The notes beneath the pieces are model-generated. The model saw only the letters and a list, made by a program, of their open reading frames with translations, made no database searches and was not told where the DNA came from. Both the position numbers and the translations under genes were made by a program. From IMG/VR virus record IMGVR_UViG_3300030329_003852, positions 1 to 24,377 of that record: 24,377 nucleotides of DNA. The stretch is one strand, 5' to 3'. Below are positions 1 through 8,614 of the stretch, in pieces. This DNA comes from a virus. Taxonomy: Duplodnaviria; Caudoviricetes. The stretch's first letter is position 1. Each line of letters begins with the position of its first letter.

Positions 1-430
1 TTTTTTTAAGATAGTTAGCAAGTAGTATTGCATCAGCATTGTATAGAGTAACCTTATGATCAGGATATAGCTGCTGTGCTAATTGCTTTAGATAATGTTT
101 CCTATCCTTCTTCTCCATCTTTGGAACAGAGAAAAACTTCATCCAAGTTATAGGTGTAACTAACTTATACTGGATATGTAATGCACTTAATATGCCTAAC
201 CACACTCCATAATTATAACCAAAATTGAAACAAGAAGTAACCCCTTGTCCTGGAAAAGCATGGACTTTCTCTACAATAGCAGTACACTTTCTAATATTCT
301 TAGAGAGGATTAACTCCTCTGCCATGTCATGAGTAGTCTTAGGACACTTAAATGTTTTAATATCATCATCCATTAGAAAGCATATACCACCTGCTTTACC
401 AGGATCTATTCCAATATATATCTTATCCAT
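1..430 (-). CDS. RuvC-like Holliday junction resolvase (3' end runs off the window; absent from ORF track)
   Basis: Manual translation from ATG 430: MDKIYIGIDPGKAGGICF...AIVEKVHAFPGQGVTSCFNFGYNYGVWLGIL...VTPITWMK...NADAILLANYLKK. Shows the IGIDPG, VE, FGxxxG, PxxW and ADAxLLA RuvC-family motifs. ATG overlaps the upstream stop (TAATG). Confidence 0.88.
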   Translation of the reverse strand, partial: MDKIYIGIDPGKAGGICFLMDDDIKTFKCPKTTHDMAEELILSKNIRKCTAIVEKVHAFPGQGVTSCFNFGYNYGVWLGILSALHIQYKLVTPITWMKFFSVPKMEKKDRKHYLKQLAQQLYPDHKVTLYNADAILLANYLKK

Positions 431-1308
431 TATTGATACTTCTCCGTTATATCTGTTAGTGATAAAGTTCCATTAGCTTTCTTCTCTGGTAGTAAAGCAG
501 CATTACAACAGTAACTATCAGTATTCTGGACTTTATAAGGATCATAGAAATCAGATGTATTACACTTAGCACAATATCCTAATACAGCATTACCTGTAGC
601 ATCTAACTTATATTCCACCTTCGCAGGTTTATCTTTTACCTCAGTATCTAATATATCTGTCCAGGATTCACCATTAATATAAGTCGTTGGTAATTTAATC
701 ATATTTCTCTCTATAGAGTTTAATTCAATCCATTTATTATAATTCTTAACTCCCTCTATGCATAGTAGTTGATTCTTTCTAGTTAGATTCTTAAATGCTG
801 TATATGCTCTTTTCTTATCTTGCTTTCTTTTATATAATTCATAAAATTCATTAAATAGTTCAAGTGCTTTATCTTGAACAGTTTCTTTCTTTTCTTTTGT
901 CTTCCTTTGTCTTCCTTTCCTTTCCTTTGGTGTATACTCATCTGGGAATATTCTTGTATCATTCCCATAGTTCTCCAAGATTGCCTTCTTGAACTTATGT
1001 CTGCTCGGTGTTGGCTTATCAATTCTTTGGTGATTTTTCCAATTTGTTATTCTAATTAAAGTTCTTTCATTATTTAGCTCTATCAAACCTACTCCAAGAA
1101 GGTTCTTGATGTAATCTTCTACCATTGAAATTGTTATATTTTCATCACATGCATAGCATACTGACTTCATTGTTAAAGCACTATTTTTCAAGATACCATC
1201 ATCATCAGCTACATTAAACATAGCAATAAACATAAGTCGTTCATATGGACTTATGCTTAATATTCTATGGCTGTGCCAGAACTCCTTTTTAATCATTCTA
1301 TTTCTCAT
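430..1308 (-). CDS. Phage replication initiator / replisome organizer
   Basis: N-terminus MRNRMIKKEFW...RLMFIAMFNVADDDG...ITNWKNHQRIDKPTPS, basic linker, FNEFYELYKRKQDKKRA...PTTYINGESW domain, C-terminal CxxC...CC. Start moved from 1365 (TTG) to ATG 1308, which follows purine-rich GGGAAGGGAA. Confidence 0.8.
   Translation of the reverse strand: MRNRMIKKEFWHSHRILSISPYERLMFIAMFNVADDDGILKNSALTMKSVCYACDENITISMVEDYIKNLLGVGLIELNNERTLIRITNWKNHQRIDKPTPSRHKFKKAILENYGNDTRIFPDEYTPKERKGRQRKTKEKKETVQDKALELFNEFYELYKRKQDKKRAYTAFKNLTRKNQLLCIEGVKNYNKWIELNSIERNMIKLPTTYINGESWTDILDTEVKDKPAKVEYKLDATGNAVLGYCAKCNTSDFYDPYKVQNTDSYCCNAALLPEKKANGTLSLTDITEKYQ
881..930. repeat. Imperfect 10-bp tandem repeats inside the rep gene (candidate origin/iteron region)
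   Basis: gtttctttct tttcttttgt cttcctttgt cttcctttcc tttcctttgg. Lies in the interdomain linker of the initiator, where lambdoid-type origins are usually found. Confidence 0.35.
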
Positions 1309-1385
1309 CTTTGTTCCCTTCCCATTAAGTAACCTAAAATAAATCCCACTAGCCAAGCTAGACAATATAGTATTATTAATTGTAT
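1305..1385 (-). CDS. Putative 26-aa membrane peptide with non-canonical ATA start, or a start-less remnant
   Basis: IQLIILYCLAWLVGFILGYLMGREQR*. Fills the gap exactly: begins inside the MTase stop (TAATA) and ends in an ATGA overlap with the rep start. Single hydrophobic helix. Confidence 0.45.
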   Translation of the reverse strand: MQLIILYCLAWLVGFILGYLMGREQR

Positions 1386-1990
1386 TAAAATAAAGTTTCC
1401 TGCCTAGTTAATTGATTAATTCTTTTCTTTGCTTCTTTATAATAGTCTTTATCAATTTCTATTCCTAATAATTCCACCCCATAGTAATGACAAGCAATCG
1501 CTATACTTCCACTACCTAAATGTGTATCTAAAATCTTTTGACCTTCTTTTGCATATTTACTTAACAGCCACTTATATAATTCTATTGGTTTTTGAGTAGG
1601 ATGTATCTTTCCACCTCTCCTATTATCATATTTAAACATTCTTGCTACACAATCAAAAGATGTCCATGCCATCTCCCAAGCACTAAAATTTGGAAATGGC
1701 TGCACTTTATCCCAGCATATAATTCCTCTTGTAGGTGGTAAATCAAAATAGTTCCCCCCCCAAATAATCTGATTTTTACTAACTCTAAATAATTCATCAA
1801 AATATTCTTTTGTAGGTGCAATATCCCAACTTGTATCTGATTGATTTAAAACCCTACTTTTTAATTTTCCTGACCCTTGCATACTTGATTTATCTAAATT
1901 GTAAGGTGGATCTACAATAGCCAAATCAAAATGGTTATTATCATAATCTTTCATAACATTCATGCAATCGTCATTTATTAATTTAATCAA
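1385..1990 (-). CDS. DNA N6-adenine/N4-cytosine methyltransferase (beta class)
   Basis: N-terminal DLAIVDPPY catalytic motif, HPTQKP, and C-terminal SAM-binding ILDTHLGSGSIAIA...GIEID. Confidence 0.92.
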   Translation of the reverse strand: MIKLINDDCMNVMKDYDNNHFDLAIVDPPYNLDKSSMQGSGKLKSRVLNQSDTSWDIAPTKEYFDELFRVSKNQIIWGGNYFDLPPTRGIICWDKVQPFPNFSAWEMAWTSFDCVARMFKYDNRRGGKIHPTQKPIELYKWLLSKYAKEGQKILDTHLGSGSIAIACHYYGVELLGIEIDKDYYKEAKKRINQLTRQETLF

Positions 1991-2604
1991 AATAATATTC
2001 CTTCAAGTATTTCTTCACATAATTGTCTAGGTACTACTGACCTCTCATAATTTCCTTTTAACCCTTGAGTTCCAGTTTGTGAACCTCTTGGTGCAGCTTC
2101 ATGATGGCAGTTTTTATTACCATTATGACACATTGATCTAGGAATCCAAAACATATCATTTGTCCATATATCTGTAGGTTTCATTCTATTTTCCCCATAT
2201 TGGCAATAGCATATAGTCCTTCTATATGGAACACTTTGTATAACAGGTAATTTTCTCAACTTACCTCTTGGATTCTCTATATAAAATCTTCCTGGATTTA
2301 ATTCTTTTATAATATCTAATGTTTTTTGAACAATTTTAACTCCCAAAATAGCTTCTTTAGTTTTAGGAGTATGGTCTTTATTCCAATGATGTCCAATAGA
2401 AGCTACAGAAAAATATGTACAAGGAGGAGATGCCCATATAATATCAGGCTCAAATGGTATTTTACTTATATCGAAATCAAATATATCACAAACTTGGTCT
2501 ATTTTTTTAAATGGTTTAAAATCAGTAGTATATGTTTCATGACCTAATTCTTCTGCAACCTTTGAAAATGACCTAGATCCTGCAAATAGTTCTAATACTT
2601 TCAT
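1987..2604 (-). CDS. Short C5-cytosine DNA methyltransferase-like protein
   Basis: Motif I VLELFAGSRS, motif IV WASPPC, motif VI IENP, YCQYG...KPT, C-terminal ERSVVP. Only 205 aa. Confidence 0.85.
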   Translation of the reverse strand: MKVLELFAGSRSFSKVAEELGHETYTTDFKPFKKIDQVCDIFDFDISKIPFEPDIIWASPPCTYFSVASIGHHWNKDHTPKTKEAILGVKIVQKTLDIIKELNPGRFYIENPRGKLRKLPVIQSVPYRRTICYCQYGENRMKPTDIWTNDMFWIPRSMCHNGNKNCHHEAAPRGSQTGTQGLKGNYERSVVPRQLCEEILEGILF

Positions 2605-2631
2605 TATATCATCCAGATATACATATTAATC

Positions 2632-2811
2632 TCAACAATCATCATATAAGAACTCTCCAAGAGTATCTGATACTATAAAATTACAACTTGGATTACTACA
2701 AGCTAATGCAGGTTCTGTTACATCACATCCTCTAAACACATCTGTTTCAAACAATGTTGCAGTACATTTTGGACAGTTAGGCATTATATTTTCTCCCTTA
2801 TAAGGCATCAT
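2632..2811 (-). CDS. Small Cys-rich zinc-ribbon-like protein (59 aa; absent from ORF track)
   Basis: GGAGAGAG RBS then MMPYKGENIMPNCPKCTATLFETDVFRGCDVTEPALACSNPSCNFIVSDTLGEFLYDDC*. CxxC...CxxxxC pattern. Alternative start at 2784. Confidence 0.7.
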   Translation of the reverse strand: MMPYKGENIMPNCPKCTATLFETDVFRGCDVTEPALACSNPSCNFIVSDTLGEFLYDDC

Positions 2812-2831
2812 ACTCTCTCCATTTTAATTAT

Positions 2832-3167
2832 TTAAATATTTTGTTTTTGAAATAAAGGATTGATAATTGTAAAATTATAATCTTCTTCAAGGTTTAAAAC
2901 ATCATTCCAATCAACTCCCCTTACTCCATAAAGTCCACCTATTAAAAACTCAAGCATATGCTCACTACCATAAAGCTCTCCACCTTTTCCCCCTTTTGAA
3001 AATAGAGCAGGGTTACTTCTTTGTTCATTCTTTAAATTTTCTATATGAAATAATAAATAATAGTATTTAGAAACAAGCCTTTCTAATATATTGTAAACAT
3101 CATTCTCTATATTAGCATCATAGTAAACTTTGTCAGACCTTTCTATAGCAAATATACTAGTTCCCAT
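2832..3167 (-). CDS. Hypothetical protein
   Basis: 111-aa ORF with AAGGAG RBS, co-oriented with neighbours. No motif recognised. Confidence 0.7.
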   Translation of the reverse strand: MGTSIFAIERSDKVYYDANIENDVYNILERLVSKYYYLLFHIENLKNEQRSNPALFSKGGKGGELYGSEHMLEFLIGGLYGVRGVDWNDVLNLEEDYNFTIINPLFQKQNI

Positions 3168-3176
3168 GTTAGCTCC

Positions 3177-3371
3177 TTATAACCTAAATTTTTCTATCAT
3201 TTGATCTAAATACTTCTTACCTACATACAAGACTGCAATAACAAATATAATTGATAATACATCTATATAATGATTCCCTGAATCTGATTCTAATGTTCCC
3301 ATAGGTGTTTCAATAGACATCTTTTTAGATTGTAATGTTGTATCTAATGTATTAATTGGTTTTGGTTTCAT
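3177..3371 (-). CDS. Small membrane protein
   Basis: 64 aa with one hydrophobic segment (VLSIIFVIAVLYVG). ATGA overlap with the upstream gene and GAGGAG RBS. Confidence 0.7.
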   Translation of the reverse strand: MKPKPINTLDTTLQSKKMSIETPMGTLESDSGNHYIDVLSIIFVIAVLYVGKKYLDQMIEKFRL

Positions 3372-3997
3372 TTGTTCTCCTCATAAAATGCTTGTGCGAA
3401 TCCAGGTGGTGTCATTGACCTTAATCTTGCTCTTTCGTTTGGTGGTAACTTGAAACTATCATAGAAGGTTCTTGACATTCTTTTAGTTTCTCCTTTTTTT
3501 GATATAAACTCTACCATATCAGGCTCTACTATGTTTGTAGGCTTTGGCATATTGAAATCTCCCCATAAACAAGTTCTTTTACTATAAGCATCACCATATT
3601 GATATGGCTGAAATGTGGATTTGGCATCTCCTATATAATGCTTTAATCTACCTACTGGATTTTCTAATACCCAAAAAGTTGGTTTGGTAATAAATACAAT
3701 TCTCAAACAAGCATCAACGACTGATAATCCCTCTAACAATGGCTTTGCACCTTTTTTCTTCCAATGCCTTGCTCCTGAACCACTAAAATGAGTACATGGT
3801 GGTGCTGACAATATTCCATATATTTTTTCTTTTGGTTTTTTAAATAATCTAACATCTCCTGTACCAAAATCATCTTCTAGCCATTCTTGTGGATCTATAA
3901 CCCTAACATCATAACCTGCTTCTTTATATGGTTTACTCCAAGAGCCTGTACCACCACATAAGTCCAGTATTATTTTATCTTGAGCAAATAAGCTCAC
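3368..3997 (-). CDS. Second short C5-cytosine DNA methyltransferase-like protein
   Basis: ILDLCGGTGSWS (motif I), SAPPC (IV), LENP (VI), QYGD..SKRT, RSMTPPGFA. GTG start overlaps the upstream TGA. Confidence 0.85.
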   Translation of the reverse strand: MSLFAQDKIILDLCGGTGSWSKPYKEAGYDVRVIDPQEWLEDDFGTGDVRLFKKPKEKIYGILSAPPCTHFSGSGARHWKKKGAKPLLEGLSVVDACLRIVFITKPTFWVLENPVGRLKHYIGDAKSTFQPYQYGDAYSKRTCLWGDFNMPKPTNIVEPDMVEFISKKGETKRMSRTFYDSFKLPPNERARLRSMTPPGFAQAFYEENK

Positions 3998-4104
3998 CTA
4001 GACCTTCTAATCCAAACACAACAAGTAATACATAAAAAGATATATAAAACACATTGTGTTAATGTTTCTATCATATACAATAAATTATACATTTCGTCTG
4101 TCAT
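3994..4104 (-). CDS. 36-aa membrane peptide (absent from ORF track)
   Basis: MTDEMYNLLYMIETLTQCVLYIFLCITCCVWIRRSR*. TAATG overlap at the start and GTGA overlap at the end. Confidence 0.65.
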   Translation of the reverse strand: MTDEMYNLLYMIETLTQCVLYIFLCITCCVWIRRSR

Positions 4105-4268
4105 TATTCTACCACCTTTACATAAAGAGGATTCCATTCATAATCACCTCTTGTTGAAGATATACTGCTTTGATCTGCATTTAATGGACTACTACAGCTC
4201 CATAATGCTATCATAATAGCTATTCCAGTAATCATTCCTAATATGTAGTCAGTTGTTTTATTTTTCAT
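4104..4268 (-). CDS. Putative 54-aa lipoprotein (absent from ORF track)
   Basis: MKNKTTDYILGMITGIAIMIALWSC-SSPLNADQSSISSTRGDYEWNPLYVKVVE*. Basic N-terminus, hydrophobic core and a lipobox-like LWSC. Confidence 0.7.
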   Translation of the reverse strand: MKNKTTDYILGMITGIAIMIALWSCSSPLNADQSSISSTRGDYEWNPLYVKVVE

Positions 4269-4482
4269 GTCCTGGCATCCTTTTTGTTTTTTTACCTATA
4301 GTTGGAAAATCTTTATAGACATCTATCTCACCATACCATGCTGTTTGCCATACAGAATTACAACAATCACAAACAAACATTTTATCATCTTGGTAATACC
4401 TATTATTATCAACAGAATTTAATTCTTTCTGCTTGGTCATATGTTGTCTTATAAAGACATCTATGATCCATTCTGTACTCAT
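4258..4482 (-). CDS. Hypothetical protein with CxxC (possible Zn-binding)
   Basis: 74 aa containing FVCDCCNSVWQ. TAATG-coupled to the upstream gene. Confidence 0.7.
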   Translation of the reverse strand: MSTEWIIDVFIRQHMTKQKELNSVDNNRYYQDDKMFVCDCCNSVWQTAWYGEIDVYKDFPTIGKKTKRMPGHEK

Positions 4483-4817
4483 TAAAATAGATTACCTTGA
4501 TTTTCAGGAGCATCCCAAGTGCGAATCTCCCCCACAACATTCTTAGAATGCTCCTGCCTAACCTTCCATTTTTCTCCCCTTAAAGATTCATTTTCTTCTT
4601 GAACCTTTTGCCTACATCTCCAAAGAGATACTGGATTGCTAAGTTCTTTCCTAGATAATAAACATAATAGTTCAAAAGCTGACATAGTATCTGTTATATC
4701 CTTGCCACCTAATTCCTCGTTCCATATAATAGCAAGTAATGACATATCATTATCTCTTGATTGAGGGTATTTCTCTAATACTTCAGTAACTTTTTTCTTT
4801 ACGTTTTTTATCTTCAT
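4482..4817 (-). CDS. Hypothetical protein
   Basis: 111 aa, GGAG RBS, helical. No confident family. Confidence 0.75.
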   Translation of the reverse strand: MKIKNVKKKVTEVLEKYPQSRDNDMSLLAIIWNEELGGKDITDTMSAFELLCLLSRKELSNPVSLWRCRQKVQEENESLRGEKWKVRQEHSKNVVGEIRTWDAPENQGNLF

Positions 4818-4833
4818 TTATTCTCCAAAATGG

Positions 4834-4914
4834 TGGGGAGAGTTGTCAATTAAACCAAAGGAGTTCGGCAGCGAAGGGAATCTGCTGCTGGACTTTTGAG
4901 GTTATCTCTCCCCA
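4834..4914 (-). ncRNA. Structured intergenic RNA downstream of ssb; candidate antisense regulator
   Basis: 9-bp perfect outer stem (tggggagag 4834-4842 / ctctcccca 4906-4914) and inner stem (gcagc 4868-4872 / gctgc 4884-4888, extendable). Locally GC-rich. Contains sequence complementary to the mRNA at 6567-6585. Confidence 0.6.
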
Positions 4915-4919
4915 TTTAA

Positions 4920-5378
4920 TTAAAATGGCAAATCATCCTCAGTAACTGTAGATTTTTTACCTTTTTTCTTATTAAATGCATCCCACATTATATTGACTTT
5001 TTCATCTGTAGAAAGCTCTTTTACTTCACTAGGTTTATTAGCATCCATAGAATTTGCAACATTACTTATAACATCAGTAATAGATTTTTTCTCAACAGGA
5101 CTTGCCTCACCATTAGGCTTAACATCCCAAGTAGTTTTATTATCAGTTACAACTTTAGTAATAACAAGTTTAGATCCTGCTTTAACACCTAATCCTTGCA
5201 ATAACTCATGTAATATCTGAGTAGCAAAGAATCCAGACTCACCTTTTATATTTTCTTTAGTACCATATAGATACCAAGTTCCATACTGTCCATCACCTGT
5301 TTTAGGTTCATCAAAACTCAACTCAACATCTACAGGCATATTTGGGTTAAACTTCATAGCTTTATTTTCCATCTTCAT
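4920..5378 (-). CDS. ssb: Single-stranded DNA-binding protein (putative)
   Basis: Beta-rich OB-like N-terminus (KTGDGQYGTWYLY), flexible tail ending in the acidic SSB tip EDDLPF. Lies next to an exonuclease. AAGGAG RBS. Confidence 0.7.
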   Translation of the reverse strand: MKMENKAMKFNPNMPVDVELSFDEPKTGDGQYGTWYLYGTKENIKGESGFFATQILHELLQGLGVKAGSKLVITKVVTDNKTTWDVKPNGEASPVEKKSITDVISNVANSMDANKPSEVKELSTDEKVNIMWDAFNKKKGKKSTVTEDDLPF

Positions 5379-6213
5379 TATTCTCCTTTAATGTAATTAT
5401 TTCATCCATTTGAAATTCTTCTTTTATTTTAGGCATCTTACCATATGCATTACTATTCATATAATGAAATAAATGCACAGTAGATAACCACTCTTGCTCA
5501 TTAAATCTATATTTTTTTAACTTGTAATTACCATTATCTTTAAGGTATAAACAATACATCTCATCTATAGTACCATGTTCTTCACCATGTATAGAATCGA
5601 ACAAGATTTTATAACTGCAAAGCTGCAACTCATGATTTTTGCTATACTCCTTGCCTGTTTTAATATCTACTATGGCTAATTTAGGCTGACCATTTTTATC
5701 AGGCATTACTAGGATGTAATCTGCTGTTCCTGCAAAAGGTATATCTCTGGAGTATAAACTTAGCTCTATTGCTTTAATTACAGGTCTATGTTCGTTATAA
5801 AACTTCTTAAATGCAAGTATATTATGATAAATATCTTCAGTAATTTCATATGTATTACCTTTATCATATAATTTAGTATCAGTTCGCAAATCATCACCAC
5901 CTGCTATAACAGAACAACATACATGGATGATAGTTCCTTTAGTGGCAGCTTCATTCATTAACCTATCACAATCGTTGCCATGAGCCTTTAGCCAAGAGGA
6001 GAAAAATACTCCTTTTGATAATACATTTAATATAGTAGTGCTAGAATATATGCATTTTCTATCTTCATCATCAGGGTTATAATAAGTCCTACCTATACTC
6101 GTATCTTTACGTCTTATAGAGCATTTAGGTTCTATTTGATTAAAACCTTCTTTAACAGTAAAATCTAAGTCTATCTTCTTCGGAAGAACTTGACTGGTTT
6201 CTTTTGTCGGCAT
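5362..6213 (-). CDS. PD-(D/E)XK exonuclease (RecB/Cas4-like phage nuclease)
   Basis: YSSTTIL...AATKGTIIH...IELSL...FAGTADYI...IVDIKTGK...LQLCSY motif order. Confidence 0.85.
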   Translation of the reverse strand: MPTKETSQVLPKKIDLDFTVKEGFNQIEPKCSIRRKDTSIGRTYYNPDDEDRKCIYSSTTILNVLSKGVFFSSWLKAHGNDCDRLMNEAATKGTIIHVCCSVIAGGDDLRTDTKLYDKGNTYEITEDIYHNILAFKKFYNEHRPVIKAIELSLYSRDIPFAGTADYILVMPDKNGQPKLAIVDIKTGKEYSKNHELQLCSYKILFDSIHGEEHGTIDEMYCLYLKDNGNYKLKKYRFNEQEWLSTVHLFHYMNSNAYGKMPKIKEEFQMDEIITLKENNEDGK

Positions 6214-6368
6214 ATTCTTGCTCCTTCAATTAATAGATCTAATATTAAATCTTGTTTTCTATGAGTTTTCTCAGGTTCTTCTATTCTTTTATTAATCAAT
6301 ATCTTATCTATCTCAAGATTTAATTCTTGAGGTATCTTCAGATTAATAGAATGTTTAATCTTTCTCAT
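6171..6368 (-). CDS. Ribbon-helix-helix (Arc/CopG-like) DNA-binding protein
   Basis: Alternating strand HSINLKIP, then helix QELNLEIDKIL and second helix KQDLILDLLIEG. AAAGGA RBS. Confidence 0.6.
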   Translation of the reverse strand: MRKIKHSINLKIPQELNLEIDKILINKRIEEPEKTHRKQDLILDLLIEGARICRQKKPVKFFRRR

Positions 6369-6561
6369 CTAATATTCCTTTAAGCTGTTTTGAAGTTATA
6401 GTTCTTTTTTTCCAAGTATATCCATTACCATCACAATTTGTACACATATAAGTAATGAACCTTCTATCACTTTTACTGAAGTCTGCATCTTTCAAGATTT
6501 CCCCAGTTCCATTACACTTTTTACACTTGTTTTTAATTTTAATATCTAAATGAACTATCAA
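6355..6561 (-). CDS. Small DnaJ-type zinc-finger protein; first gene of the early operon
   Basis: Two CxxCxGxG repeats (CKKCNGTG, CTNCDGNG). Start re-assigned to TTG 6561, 5 nt after AAAGGAG; the track's start at 6648 lies in terminator/promoter DNA. Confidence 0.75.
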   Translation of the reverse strand: MIVHLDIKIKNKCKKCNGTGEILKDADFSKSDRRFITYMCTNCDGNGYTWKKRTITSKQLKGILDEKD

Positions 6562-6585
6562 GTTATCTCCTTTGCTTAATTGACA

Positions 6586-6622
6586 TATATATAATATATT
6601 ACAAAAATAACAAATATAACAA
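6586..6622 (-). promoter_or_regulatory. Putative sigma70-type early promoter
   Basis: TTGTTA (6622-6617), 18-nt spacer, TATATT (6598-6593); predicted +1 near 6586. Very AT-rich gap between the terminator and the first early gene. Confidence 0.5.
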
Positions 6623-6641
6623 TAATTATTTTCTTCTCTAT

Positions 6642-6677
6642 AAAACAATAAACCCCACTAAAAAGTGAGGTCTATTG
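6642..6677 (-). terminator. Intrinsic terminator of the structural operon
   Basis: Minus strand CAATAGACCTCACT-TTTT-AGTGGGGTTTATTG-TTTT: 14-bp stem with 2 G-U pairs followed by a U-tract, downstream of the last tail gene. Confidence 0.8.
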
Positions 6678-6692
6678 CTGTACTGGAACACA

Positions 6693-6718
6693 TCTAGGAT
6701 ACTGTGGGATACCCTAGA
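6693..6718 (-). other. Additional 3'-UTR hairpin
   Basis: Minus strand TCTAGGGTAT-CCCACA-GTATCCTAGA: 10-bp stem including 2 G-U pairs. Confidence 0.5.
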
Positions 6719-6724
6719 ATTTTT

Positions 6725-7867
6725 CTACCAAGTTTCGTTTATACGCATGTTTACGTTGAACTTCTTGTATGTTTTTTGTTGCACTTGGAATCCTGGTTTA
6801 TCAAATCTACATATTGCAAAATTTCCAGGAGAATTATCTTGTGATGGAGAAAATAAGAATGGTAATGTTCCCCCTAAAGTATTATGATATACTGTGCTAT
6901 ATAGTGAATTATCATTATTTATATTATAGTTAAAATCTCCAGTAGCTGGGGTAGTTCCATCAGCATTTTCAGTAACAGTTACATCTTCTCCATCTGTATA
7001 TCCCCCATTAAGTAAATCTGCTTCATGTGTACCTACTAGCTCATTAGCTGGAAATACACCATTAGGCACACCATCTGTATAAAACCTATCTTGTAGTTGG
7101 CTAAATCTTACATCCCAGCTTCTACGACCTAATCTTGAGCTTCTATGCTTAAATGAAGAATCAGTATATAACTCAAATGGTGTACTATTCCACCAATTAG
7201 GAGGTTTAATATGATTTATAACAGAATAGGTCGAACCACCTTTAGTTTGTTTTTGCTTAACACCATCCATAATTCTTCTTTGTGTTACAGAAAGGTCTGC
7301 ATGAAATTCAGGCTCATAAACATATCCTATTGCTATTGAACCTACATTAGAGTAGATAGGATTACTAGTAATATTAACGTTTTGTGTAATAAAATGAAAA
7401 GTCATAATATTTTCATTAAGACTTGGTGTAAATGTTGATAAAGACCATCCATTATAATCGCATTGATTATAATGATCATTAGTATGACCATTAACTATAC
7501 TTTCAAAATCTTGATCTTCATGTTCATAATCTGAATTATCCCCACTAAAACCTTGTTGTGATGTTCCAAGATTCAATCTCCAATAAAGATTTTTGAAATT
7601 AAATTCATGACCTAAAATAGCTACAAACATTTTTGCATTGGAAGGAACACTTATTGGGGTTTTTAAAGCTACTTTAAAATAAGCTGGTCCTGAAGATGTA
7701 TTAATAAGATAGGGATTTACTGGACTGAAATCAAATGCATGTGGACTAACAACCAAAGGATCTGTTTGCCAATTTGTATGTGCAACTTCAACATTACCTA
7801 TATGATAATTATAATTTAATAAATCTATAAAAAAACGAGGTTTCTCAGCTTGATTCCCTACTGCCAT
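6725..7867 (-). CDS. Virion tail protein, possibly distal-tail (Dit-like) with an extra N-terminal beta domain
   Basis: Position in the tail module. C-terminal half (DGVKQKQTKGG...GRRSWDVRF...PFLFSP...CRF...FNVNMRINETW) resembles the Dit/gpM pattern. AGGAG RBS. Confidence 0.5.
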   Translation of the reverse strand: MAVGNQAEKPRFFIDLLNYNYHIGNVEVAHTNWQTDPLVVSPHAFDFSPVNPYLINTSSGPAYFKVALKTPISVPSNAKMFVAILGHEFNFKNLYWRLNLGTSQQGFSGDNSDYEHEDQDFESIVNGHTNDHYNQCDYNGWSLSTFTPSLNENIMTFHFITQNVNITSNPIYSNVGSIAIGYVYEPEFHADLSVTQRRIMDGVKQKQTKGGSTYSVINHIKPPNWWNSTPFELYTDSSFKHRSSRLGRRSWDVRFSQLQDRFYTDGVPNGVFPANELVGTHEADLLNGGYTDGEDVTVTENADGTTPATGDFNYNINNDNSLYSTVYHNTLGGTLPFLFSPSQDNSPGNFAICRFDKPGFQVQQKTYKKFNVNMRINETW

Positions 7868-7879
7868 AATAAATTTCTC

Positions 7880-8614
7880 CTAATATCCACCACTACCACC
7901 TGAGCCACCTGAGCCACCTCCACCTCCAGCTCCACCACTCTCACTCTGCATTATTGTTTTACTAGATTGACCTTTGAATACTTTTATTTTTGCATCCTTA
8001 TCCCTAGAAATATTCATCATATCATCATCTGTAACAACAGCTAATCTTTTAGCTTTTGGTCGTAGTAGTTTGTTGTTTTGATCTTTTCTATATATATTTA
8101 CAGAATCAGCATTATGTATTGATTCTGTCATAGCTTGTCCATTCGAATGTTGGTGATATTCTCCAAAATAATTATCACCATTGTCATAATAAAATTCATT
8201 TTGTTCTGTAAAGAGGTTATTTTTGTATATATCGGTATCTTCTATTGTATCAATAGGTAAATGTCTTGAATTATAGTCTGAGAAGTAAGAACCACCATTT
8301 TCAAAAGTTTCTTCTGATACAGAGAACAGGTCTATATCTAATATTTTATAATTAGGAGTAATTTCTTCTAATTCTTGTGTTATAATTCTTGCACCTATTA
8401 TTGCAAAAGAACCTGCAAATTCAAACAATTCAGTTACTTCTGAATCTCCTGTAAGAGAAATACATAGTATTTTATTTCTTCCTGTTCCTACATACCAATT
8501 ATCGGCTAACTTAGATTCCCCTATAAACTTTCCTTTATACTTTATCTCTATAGCAGAACAAGTAACTGGCTCTGAAAGTATTATTGAATCTCTGTAATGT
8601 AATAATTCTATCAT
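7880..8614 (-). CDS. Tail-associated protein: cohesin-like N-terminal beta domain, His-rich motif, Gly/Ser tail
   Basis: TAATG-coupled to the dockerin-bearing gene. Beta-strand-rich first ~90 aa, YFGEYHQHSNGQAMTESIH motif, C-terminus GGAGGGGGSGGSGGSGGY. The CDS is secure; the domain call is tentative. Confidence 0.55.
   Translation of the reverse strand: MIELLHYRDSIILSEPVTCSAIEIKYKGKFIGESKLADNWYVGTGRNKILCISLTGDSEVTELFEFAGSFAIIGARIITQELEEITPNYKILDIDLFSVSEETFENGGSYFSDYNSRHLPIDTIEDTDIYKNNLFTEQNEFYYDNGDNYFGEYHQHSNGQAMTESIHNADSVNIYRKDQNNKLLRPKAKRLAVVTDDDMMNISRDKDAKIKVFKGQSSKTIMQSESGGAGGGGGSGGSGGSGGY

Follow-up and report, generated by a model that had tools for sequence, protein, structure and literature searches.

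The question raised by this locus is whether an RNA hairpin encoded inside a phage operon acts back on the start of that operon. The window, i.e. the whole stretch of DNA analysed, is the entire 24.4-kb record (24,377 nucleotides) of an uncultured tailed phage, its genome estimated to be 75% complete, with all its genes on the minus strand (capsid, tape-measure, lysin, exonuclease, methylase and initiator). A reading made from the sequence alone had proposed that the minus-strand RNA of positions 4834–4914, behind an ssb-like gene, is antisense to the 5′ end and ribosome binding site (RBS) of its own early operon, 1.7 kb upstream, and could form a feedback or immunity switch. This idea gains support from our analysis: shuffled sequences fall short of the observed pairing, the complementarity is conserved and covaries among relatives, and the reading of the sites as DNA operators is disfavoured. 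A second target operon and an apical-loop module, both overlooked before, are added to it. We estimate at roughly 70% the probability that this conserved hairpin in the predicted early transcript, complementary to both early leaders, is an antisense RNA that covers RBSs and causes a delayed down-turn of early expression.

The operon that holds the element

The near relative G001 (32.4 kb, 95% complete) is 93–96% identical to the window over the longest shared blocks and holds, beyond the window content, a Holliday resolvase gene, an array of repeats and a second operon whose genes are small and variable, as well as terminase and portal-like genes. Its large terminase, portal-like and Mu F-like genes are opposite in strand to nearly all others (L150:14059–16381 (−), L149:360–1736 (−)). 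Three to four imperfect direct repeats of ~25 bp, with ~32-bp spacing, separate the resolvase gene from the second early leader in the 4/4 loci checked (L150:10920–11041; L012:10280–10413; L022:10890–11017; L028:8346–8466); they are iteron-like and make a candidate replication origin just past the left end of the window. No CI-like repressor had been seen in the window, and a search for HTH_3 repressors likewise found none in the window record (G000) or in G001; the same two genomes gave no tyrosine integrase and no serine resolvase-type recombinase, and the ORF list of G001 showed nothing recognisable as a partition gene.

The first operon, which its gene content and position suggest to be early, comprises zinc-ribbon, RHH-like, exonuclease, ssb-like, methylase and initiator genes, and stop-to-start overlaps link the first four, from the first ORF to ssb. 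The first gene encodes a 68-aa zinc-ribbon protein (6355–6561, minus strand like all features of the operon) with weak matches to PHROG Q-like and Pfam DnaJ_CXXCXGXG; its start was placed at TTG 6561 because homologous relatives begin MIVHLD. This gene is replaced in L001, L012, L018 and L019, in which the leader is retained. It is followed by a 65-aa protein (6171–6368), for which neither Pfam nor PHROG gave a match and whose RHH-like label, taken from the Atlas neighbours TraM, DUF3950 and RHH_1 (0.90–0.91), is a lead only, and by a PD-(D/E)XK exonuclease (5362–6213; phrog_298, E 8e-29). The fourth product (4920–5378), which ends in an acidic DDLPF tail, has no family match in Pfam or PHROG either; the name ssb-like appears fair because its structural model (mean pLDDT 60.7) is a predicted OB fold with SSBs as the top, weak Foldseek rows (E 0.014 or weaker; VIA Z 5–7.5 to OB folds). 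Directly downstream of the element, a conserved 111-aa gene (4482–4817), again without a family match in Pfam or PHROG, follows the hairpin in the window and in 17 translated relatives. Three DNA methyltransferase genes lie within the operon at 1385–3997, and the methylase set at those positions varies among relatives. At the other end, a hairpin with a U-tract after the last structural gene (6645–6672), read from the sequence and absent from the terminator scan list, is likely a terminator separating the early operon from upstream transcription.

A conserved structured element with a predicted exposed seed

The element (4834–4914, minus strand) occupies 81 of the 102 nt that separate the ssb-like gene from its downstream neighbour and folds at −29.4 kcal/mol (z −4.8) into three stacked helices: P1, which closes the element, the short and invariant P2, and P3, an apical hairpin. 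A covariance model finds it after the ssb-like gene in 21 sequences, 13 of them distinct (19 metagenome loci, the window and G001). Among the 22 metagenome loci with an ssb relative, 19 carry it directly after the stop codon, the other three being cut off (L027), a diverged form missed by the model (L025) and another hairpin (L023). Changes to both partners are seen at 10 of its 15 pairs, against at most 4 in slid controls, and all 195 cells pair, as counted on a model-fitted alignment that leans towards its own structure.

The 9-bp closing stem noticed earlier was confirmed, 4914–4906 pairing with 4842–4834: compensatory changes affect 7 of the 8 modelled pairs and 100% of cells are paired, three of them as G-U on the minus strand where the plus strand would have A-C. 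The 3′ strand of P1 runs into ACCA, a tRNA-like end (4831–4842). The base of P1 resembles that of an RNase P substrate in its G-rich stem start, which is general, and in the ACCA end, found in 5 of the 13 distinct sequences only; on this ACCA count, conservation of such a substrate across the relatives was rejected. The hairpin has no conserved U-tract.

Within the stem, a 5′ arm reading AACCUCAAAAGUC (4891–4903) is near-invariant, with one change only across the 13 distinct sequences, and is predicted to pair partly with the anti-leader arm as a shield. Its conservation exceeds what shielding requires; no trans target stood out for it in G001, L012, L019, L022 and L028, and its invariance may mark a protein contact. 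The arm is also retained in the divergent L025 (698–800), whose element keeps part of the anti-Shine-Dalgarno (anti-SD) segment as well and has a different seed region, on a contig without leader. P3 (4868–4888) shows compensatory changes at 3 of its 4 pairs, and its apical loop is unpaired with probability 0.83. The anti-leader arm (4844–4863) consists of the anti-SD (4863–4857), a shielded GGUU (4856–4853) and an exposed seed (4852–4844), with unpaired probabilities of 0.67, 0.24 and 0.94, respectively. Across 15 sequences the 9-nt seed is predicted to be single-stranded (0.71–0.94), the middle of the arm being held by the 5′ arm.

Rfam gave no match at E ≤ 1 in the window, nor at E ≤ 5 over the element in eight relatives; the sole overlap in the latter search was an 18.8-bit TeloSII hit on the opposite strand of L011, for a gathering score of 298. 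A tight DNA pattern returned five chance matches plus G001, and a loose one 120 loci in viral contigs, all of which were folded and the best 45 inspected; the covariance model matched none of the 100 of these 120 loci that it searched. Apart from G001, protein scans of viral contigs yielded three distant ssb relatives and nothing else; two loci from genome contigs were weak and unrelated, and blastn against 50,697 GenBank phages gave no match. The distant ssb relatives (L004–L006, 6524–6570) have a different GC-closed hairpin after ssb, with a pyrimidine-rich loop for which no leader match was found within their genomes. No paper on the element was found in a literature search: the accessible portions of the c4-motif lists of PMC2864571 and PMC5737381 hold nothing resembling it, those of the phage sRNA review PMC12197685 no comparable case, and the 5′ arm motif is absent from six supplementary files of PMC10690425, so that it may still be among the candidates given elsewhere in that study.

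Predicted pairing with two early leaders

In the window, the best trans duplex of the element is formed with the leader of the first early gene, including its SD (6567–6585; SD at 6573–6567). The sequences and coordinates of both partners are those reported by the sequence-only reading, and the pairing it described was reproduced: with 4863–4844 set against 6585–6567, all 19 target bases pair, with one G-U and one bulged G. This duplex amounts to −23.8 kcal/mol, and the next best trans site in the window to −16.3, a gap of 7.5. None of 40 block-wise dinucleotide shuffles of the window reaches this value (mean −18.0, sd 1.5, best −21.9), nor does any of 40 shuffled queries (best −20.1), and the 10-nt perfect core is equalled by 53 of 20,000 element shuffles. 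Note that the 20-mer in these shuffle tests was picked after the fact; it is the comparative data, rather than the shuffles, that carry the case for pairing.

Two details of the earlier description fared less well. The motif GAGAUAAC, pointed out at both sites, is indeed present in both, and is incidental because it is conserved at neither in relatives; it was rejected as a functional repeat. The +1 predicted at the leader is putative, promoter-like matches occurring at chance level (47 found for 46.1 expected) and no conserved −35 being found upstream of leaders. TTGACA as a −35 box at the element or leader was also rejected, being lost in ATT-type relatives.

The complementarity itself is conserved. 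Each of the 14 related loci whose length takes in element and leader alike has an early leader as its strongest trans site, both strands considered, and the motif of leader 1 is present in 15/15 element-bearing sequences that reach that far. A second target, the leader of the second early operon, lies outside the window, ~4.8 kb downstream of the element and beyond the repeat region; it is seen in 5/5 loci reaching past the resolvase and covaries as leader 1 does. The top two sites in G001 are the two leaders (−23.8 and −21.2 kcal/mol), followed by one at −18.9. Net binding after opening both RNAs ranges from −9.1 to −17.1 kcal/mol for 10 pairs.

Changes in the element are matched by changes in the leaders. 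When elements were cross-paired with leaders identified by their place before the first gene, the duplicates L007, L008, L014, L015 and L017 being omitted, the best partner was an element of the leader's own class in 16/16 cases (10 AAT-type, 5 ATT-type and L023); for three of these 16, all ATT-type, a sister ATT-type element pairs 0.3–1.6 kcal/mol better than their own. Elements reading UUAAAUGAC go with leaders reading GTCATTTAA or a G-U variant (L022, L026, L028), and this holds for both operons wherever a locus includes both. Three lineage events tie the element to its leaders. The A/T seed change is present in the element and in both operon leaders of L022 and L028; the trees allow a single origin and it may be one event, which leaves about three independent covariation events. 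The second is a matched 1-nt insertion in L026, where the element has gained an A and the leader a T. The third is L023, which branches beside L028, nested in the tree (98/99), and has an unrelated hairpin and an unrelated leader; the apical region of this hairpin complements the leader RBS over 11/11 positions (19 of 20,000 shuffles). The L023 locus (2972–3040 and 840–903) also has a more canonical sigma70-like promoter with its different hairpin and leader, the flanking genes being unchanged, which suggests that promoter-leader and hairpin were swapped as a matched set.

Within the leaders, leaving aside changes interpreted as indels, seed positions 2–12 show A>G and C>T substitutions only, both of which preserve a G-U pair, and no reverse transition occurs in 20 leader rows. 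Position 13 shows C>T, C>A or gaps in several leaders, and two lineages have a 2-nt deletion. The leader list was gathered with a motif pattern; a check by position in five long loci revealed no missed leader. Overall, this is a real, conserved structured element, and the comparative evidence for its base-pairing with two early leaders is good.

A further module may reside in the apical loop, where UCCCUU (4879–4874) is complementary to the AAGGGA RBS of second-operon genes in relatives. At −11 kcal/mol or better, 11 of 17 hand-picked downstream second-operon starts pair with their own apical loop, and an automated count finds AAGGG RBSs on 11/21 second-operon versus 4/79 first-operon genes (Fisher p 2e-6), for starts that are noisy or hand-picked and genomes that are related. 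Many downstream second-operon genes were unmatched in the other loci inspected. The apical-loop module is the less certain of the two, because a shared, recombination-friendly cassette boundary could also yield the AAGGGA bias. In the window, the initiator gene and a small zinc-ribbon gene likewise have RBSs of AAGGGA type (1315–1322 and 2794–2799, minus strand), potential partners of the apical loop, that of the initiator being retained in L150 and L019 and not in L012, L022 and L028. Most second-operon genes without AAGGGA have GGAGGT as RBS (L150:12139, 12494; L012:11519; L019 end); it is speculative that ACCUC of a released 5′ arm covers it over 5 nt.

Other readings of the same sites

The main alternative keeps the RNA–RNA pairing and gives it another purpose, immunity or dormancy in a plasmid-like or carrier state instead of lytic timing. 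The replication-initiator-like gene and the four conserved ~25-bp repeats at ~32-bp spacing could support extrachromosomal maintenance, and the seed change would define specificity groups, in the way that small changes set the specificity of C4 RNA, of which 4-nt changes between P1 and P7 are an example in the available part of PMC5320573. We nevertheless hold it to be unlikely: the RNA sits 1.7 kb into the operon, behind lytic recombination genes, the integrase, resolvase and HTH_3 repressor searches described above came back empty, and no partition gene was recognised among the listed ORFs of G001. Since even G001, complete to 95%, revealed none of the first three, the immunity of a classical lysogen becomes less probable.

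It is less probable again that the pairing with leader 1 is a purely intramolecular, long-range lock in cis, with the hairpin serving mainly as a processing or stability boundary. One predicted transcript does hold both element and leader 1, and the scarcity of the RNase P-like ACCA end and the missing U-tract are in keeping with such a lock. It leaves aside the second leader, ~4.8 kb downstream past the repeats, which covaries equally, and the apical-loop targets, which also lie within the second operon.

A DNA-level explanation, very unlikely in our estimate, takes the three sites as the operators or promoter elements of a single protein, the RHH-like ORF for example, and regards the inversion in the hairpin as incidental. 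The motif stands at the predicted starts of both early operons, where a canonical −35 is not conserved, and both window copies contain TTGACA and score as −35 boxes; this hexamer is lost in ATT-type relatives and in L020. An RHH operator is disfavoured because the predicted recognition strand, HSINLKIP, is invariant in 13/13 relatives while the motif changes or, in L023, is replaced altogether. Nor would a DNA site explain the SD complement, the direction of the G-U substitutions, the covarying stems or the L023 exchange.

The functional RNA could also be the plus strand, which, by imitating the leader and the AAGGGA RBS, would serve as a decoy to titrate a protein or the minus-strand RNA; for this we see slightly less room still. 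The plus strand folds to lower energy in 13/15 sequences, with a near-continuous G-U helix, the z-scores of the two strands in the window being similar (−5.15 for plus versus −4.80 for minus), and the best promoter-like match on this strand lies ~100 nt before the element. Against this, the three P1 wobble cells are G-U on the minus and A-C on the plus strand, and target changes track the minus-strand wobble; although few, these wobbles, in P1 and targets alike, speak for the minus strand. An automatic stem-extension comparison of the strands ran into unpaired flanks (7 G-U versus 20 A-C cells) and is uninformative. The promoter-like site (4702–4730, plus strand; 11/12, the best in 1–8000) points into the element from within the codons of the conserved downstream gene and is similar, by eye, in L023, which has no such element; it could make an anti-sRNA or merely reflect codon constraint. 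Finally, a chance match, conceivable in a genome of 32% GC, where SD complements are common and the segment was chosen after the fact, is contradicted by the shuffles and by the covariation across relatives and is practically negligible.

Proposed action and relation to known phage RNAs

From the computed structure, accessibility, complementarity and covariation, we infer that the element is expressed from the minus strand, released from the transcript and acts in trans as a timed repressor. The exposed 9-nt seed would first contact the AU-rich 5′ end of the early transcript; pairing would then displace the weak 5′ shield arm and extend across the SD of the first gene, the layout of a toehold switch. 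Because stop-to-start overlaps join the genes from the first ORF through ssb, occlusion of the first RBS would probably be polar and silence the series of genes leading up to the element, which would complete a negative feedback loop. This feedback would be delayed, since the element RNA is made only after 1.7 kb of the targeted operon. Separately, the apical loop would cover the AAGGGA RBS of downstream second-operon genes. Early shut-off in the lytic cycle is our preferred role, because no repressor or integrase is in view. The polarity in the P1 icd-ant operon parallels the polar block proposed here.

C4 and CI, the known self-regulating phage RNAs of such build, maintain lysogeny; by analogy, the element would act like P1 C4 or P4 CI, and it belongs to neither family. 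Like C4 (P1/P7, RF01695; c4-2), as far as the available part of PMC5320573 describes it, the element is a structured RNA of ~80 nt inside the transcript to be regulated, with more than one target and two pairing regions, one over the RBS and the other giving specificity. As in C4, complementarity and covariation point to pairing with sites of its own operon over an RBS. The element differs in having no Rfam covariance-model match and in its architecture: C4 has three stem-loops with a′ and b′ loops, whereas the element model has 0 branch points and places its pairing regions in a 3′ bulge with internal loop and in the apical loop. Its targets are early operon leaders instead of an antirepressor operon, with no repressor or integrase found.

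P4 CI RNA resembles the action proposed for the element in being processed from the leader of the operon that it silences and in pairing with complementary sites (in the portion of PMC4825925 available), and it is a hairpin-like RNase P substrate according to the accessible part of PMC5499578. CI pairs with the flanking seqA and seqC and terminates within the same leader, whereas here the targets take in SD sequences and are found 1.7 kb upstream and ~4.8 kb downstream of the element; the element matches no Rfam model for CI or any other RNA. P22 sar, which blocks translation initiation, lambda OOP and aQ also pair with mRNA of their own phage, in the sections available of PMC12197685; they are transcribed opposite their target and fully complementary to it, whereas the element is distant, imperfectly complementary and has several targets. 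With its predicted exposed seed, imperfect pairing to distant targets and compensatory conservation, it resembles a trans-encoded base-pairing phage sRNA.

The full combination, a repressor-free lytic phage with RNA-only early timing, two anti-RBS modules, an RBS address code and matched swaps, is in our view somewhat short of an even bet. If true, a single hairpin ending the exonuclease–ssb block would shut both early operons, second-operon RBSs would have been shaped by the phage into an address code for the hairpin RNA, and hairpin and leaders, 2 kb apart, would be exchanged as a pair between relatives. The natural allele pairs (AAT, ATT and L023 types) suit cross-specificity tests without culturing the phage. 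The model would account for the odd leader and RBS sequences common to some phage operons, and a covarying two-module RNA in a phage where neither integrase nor CI-type repressor is detectable would amount to protein-free shut-off of early genes. The element could then be one example of an undescribed kind of ssb-linked antisense switch that is widespread among uncultured phages.
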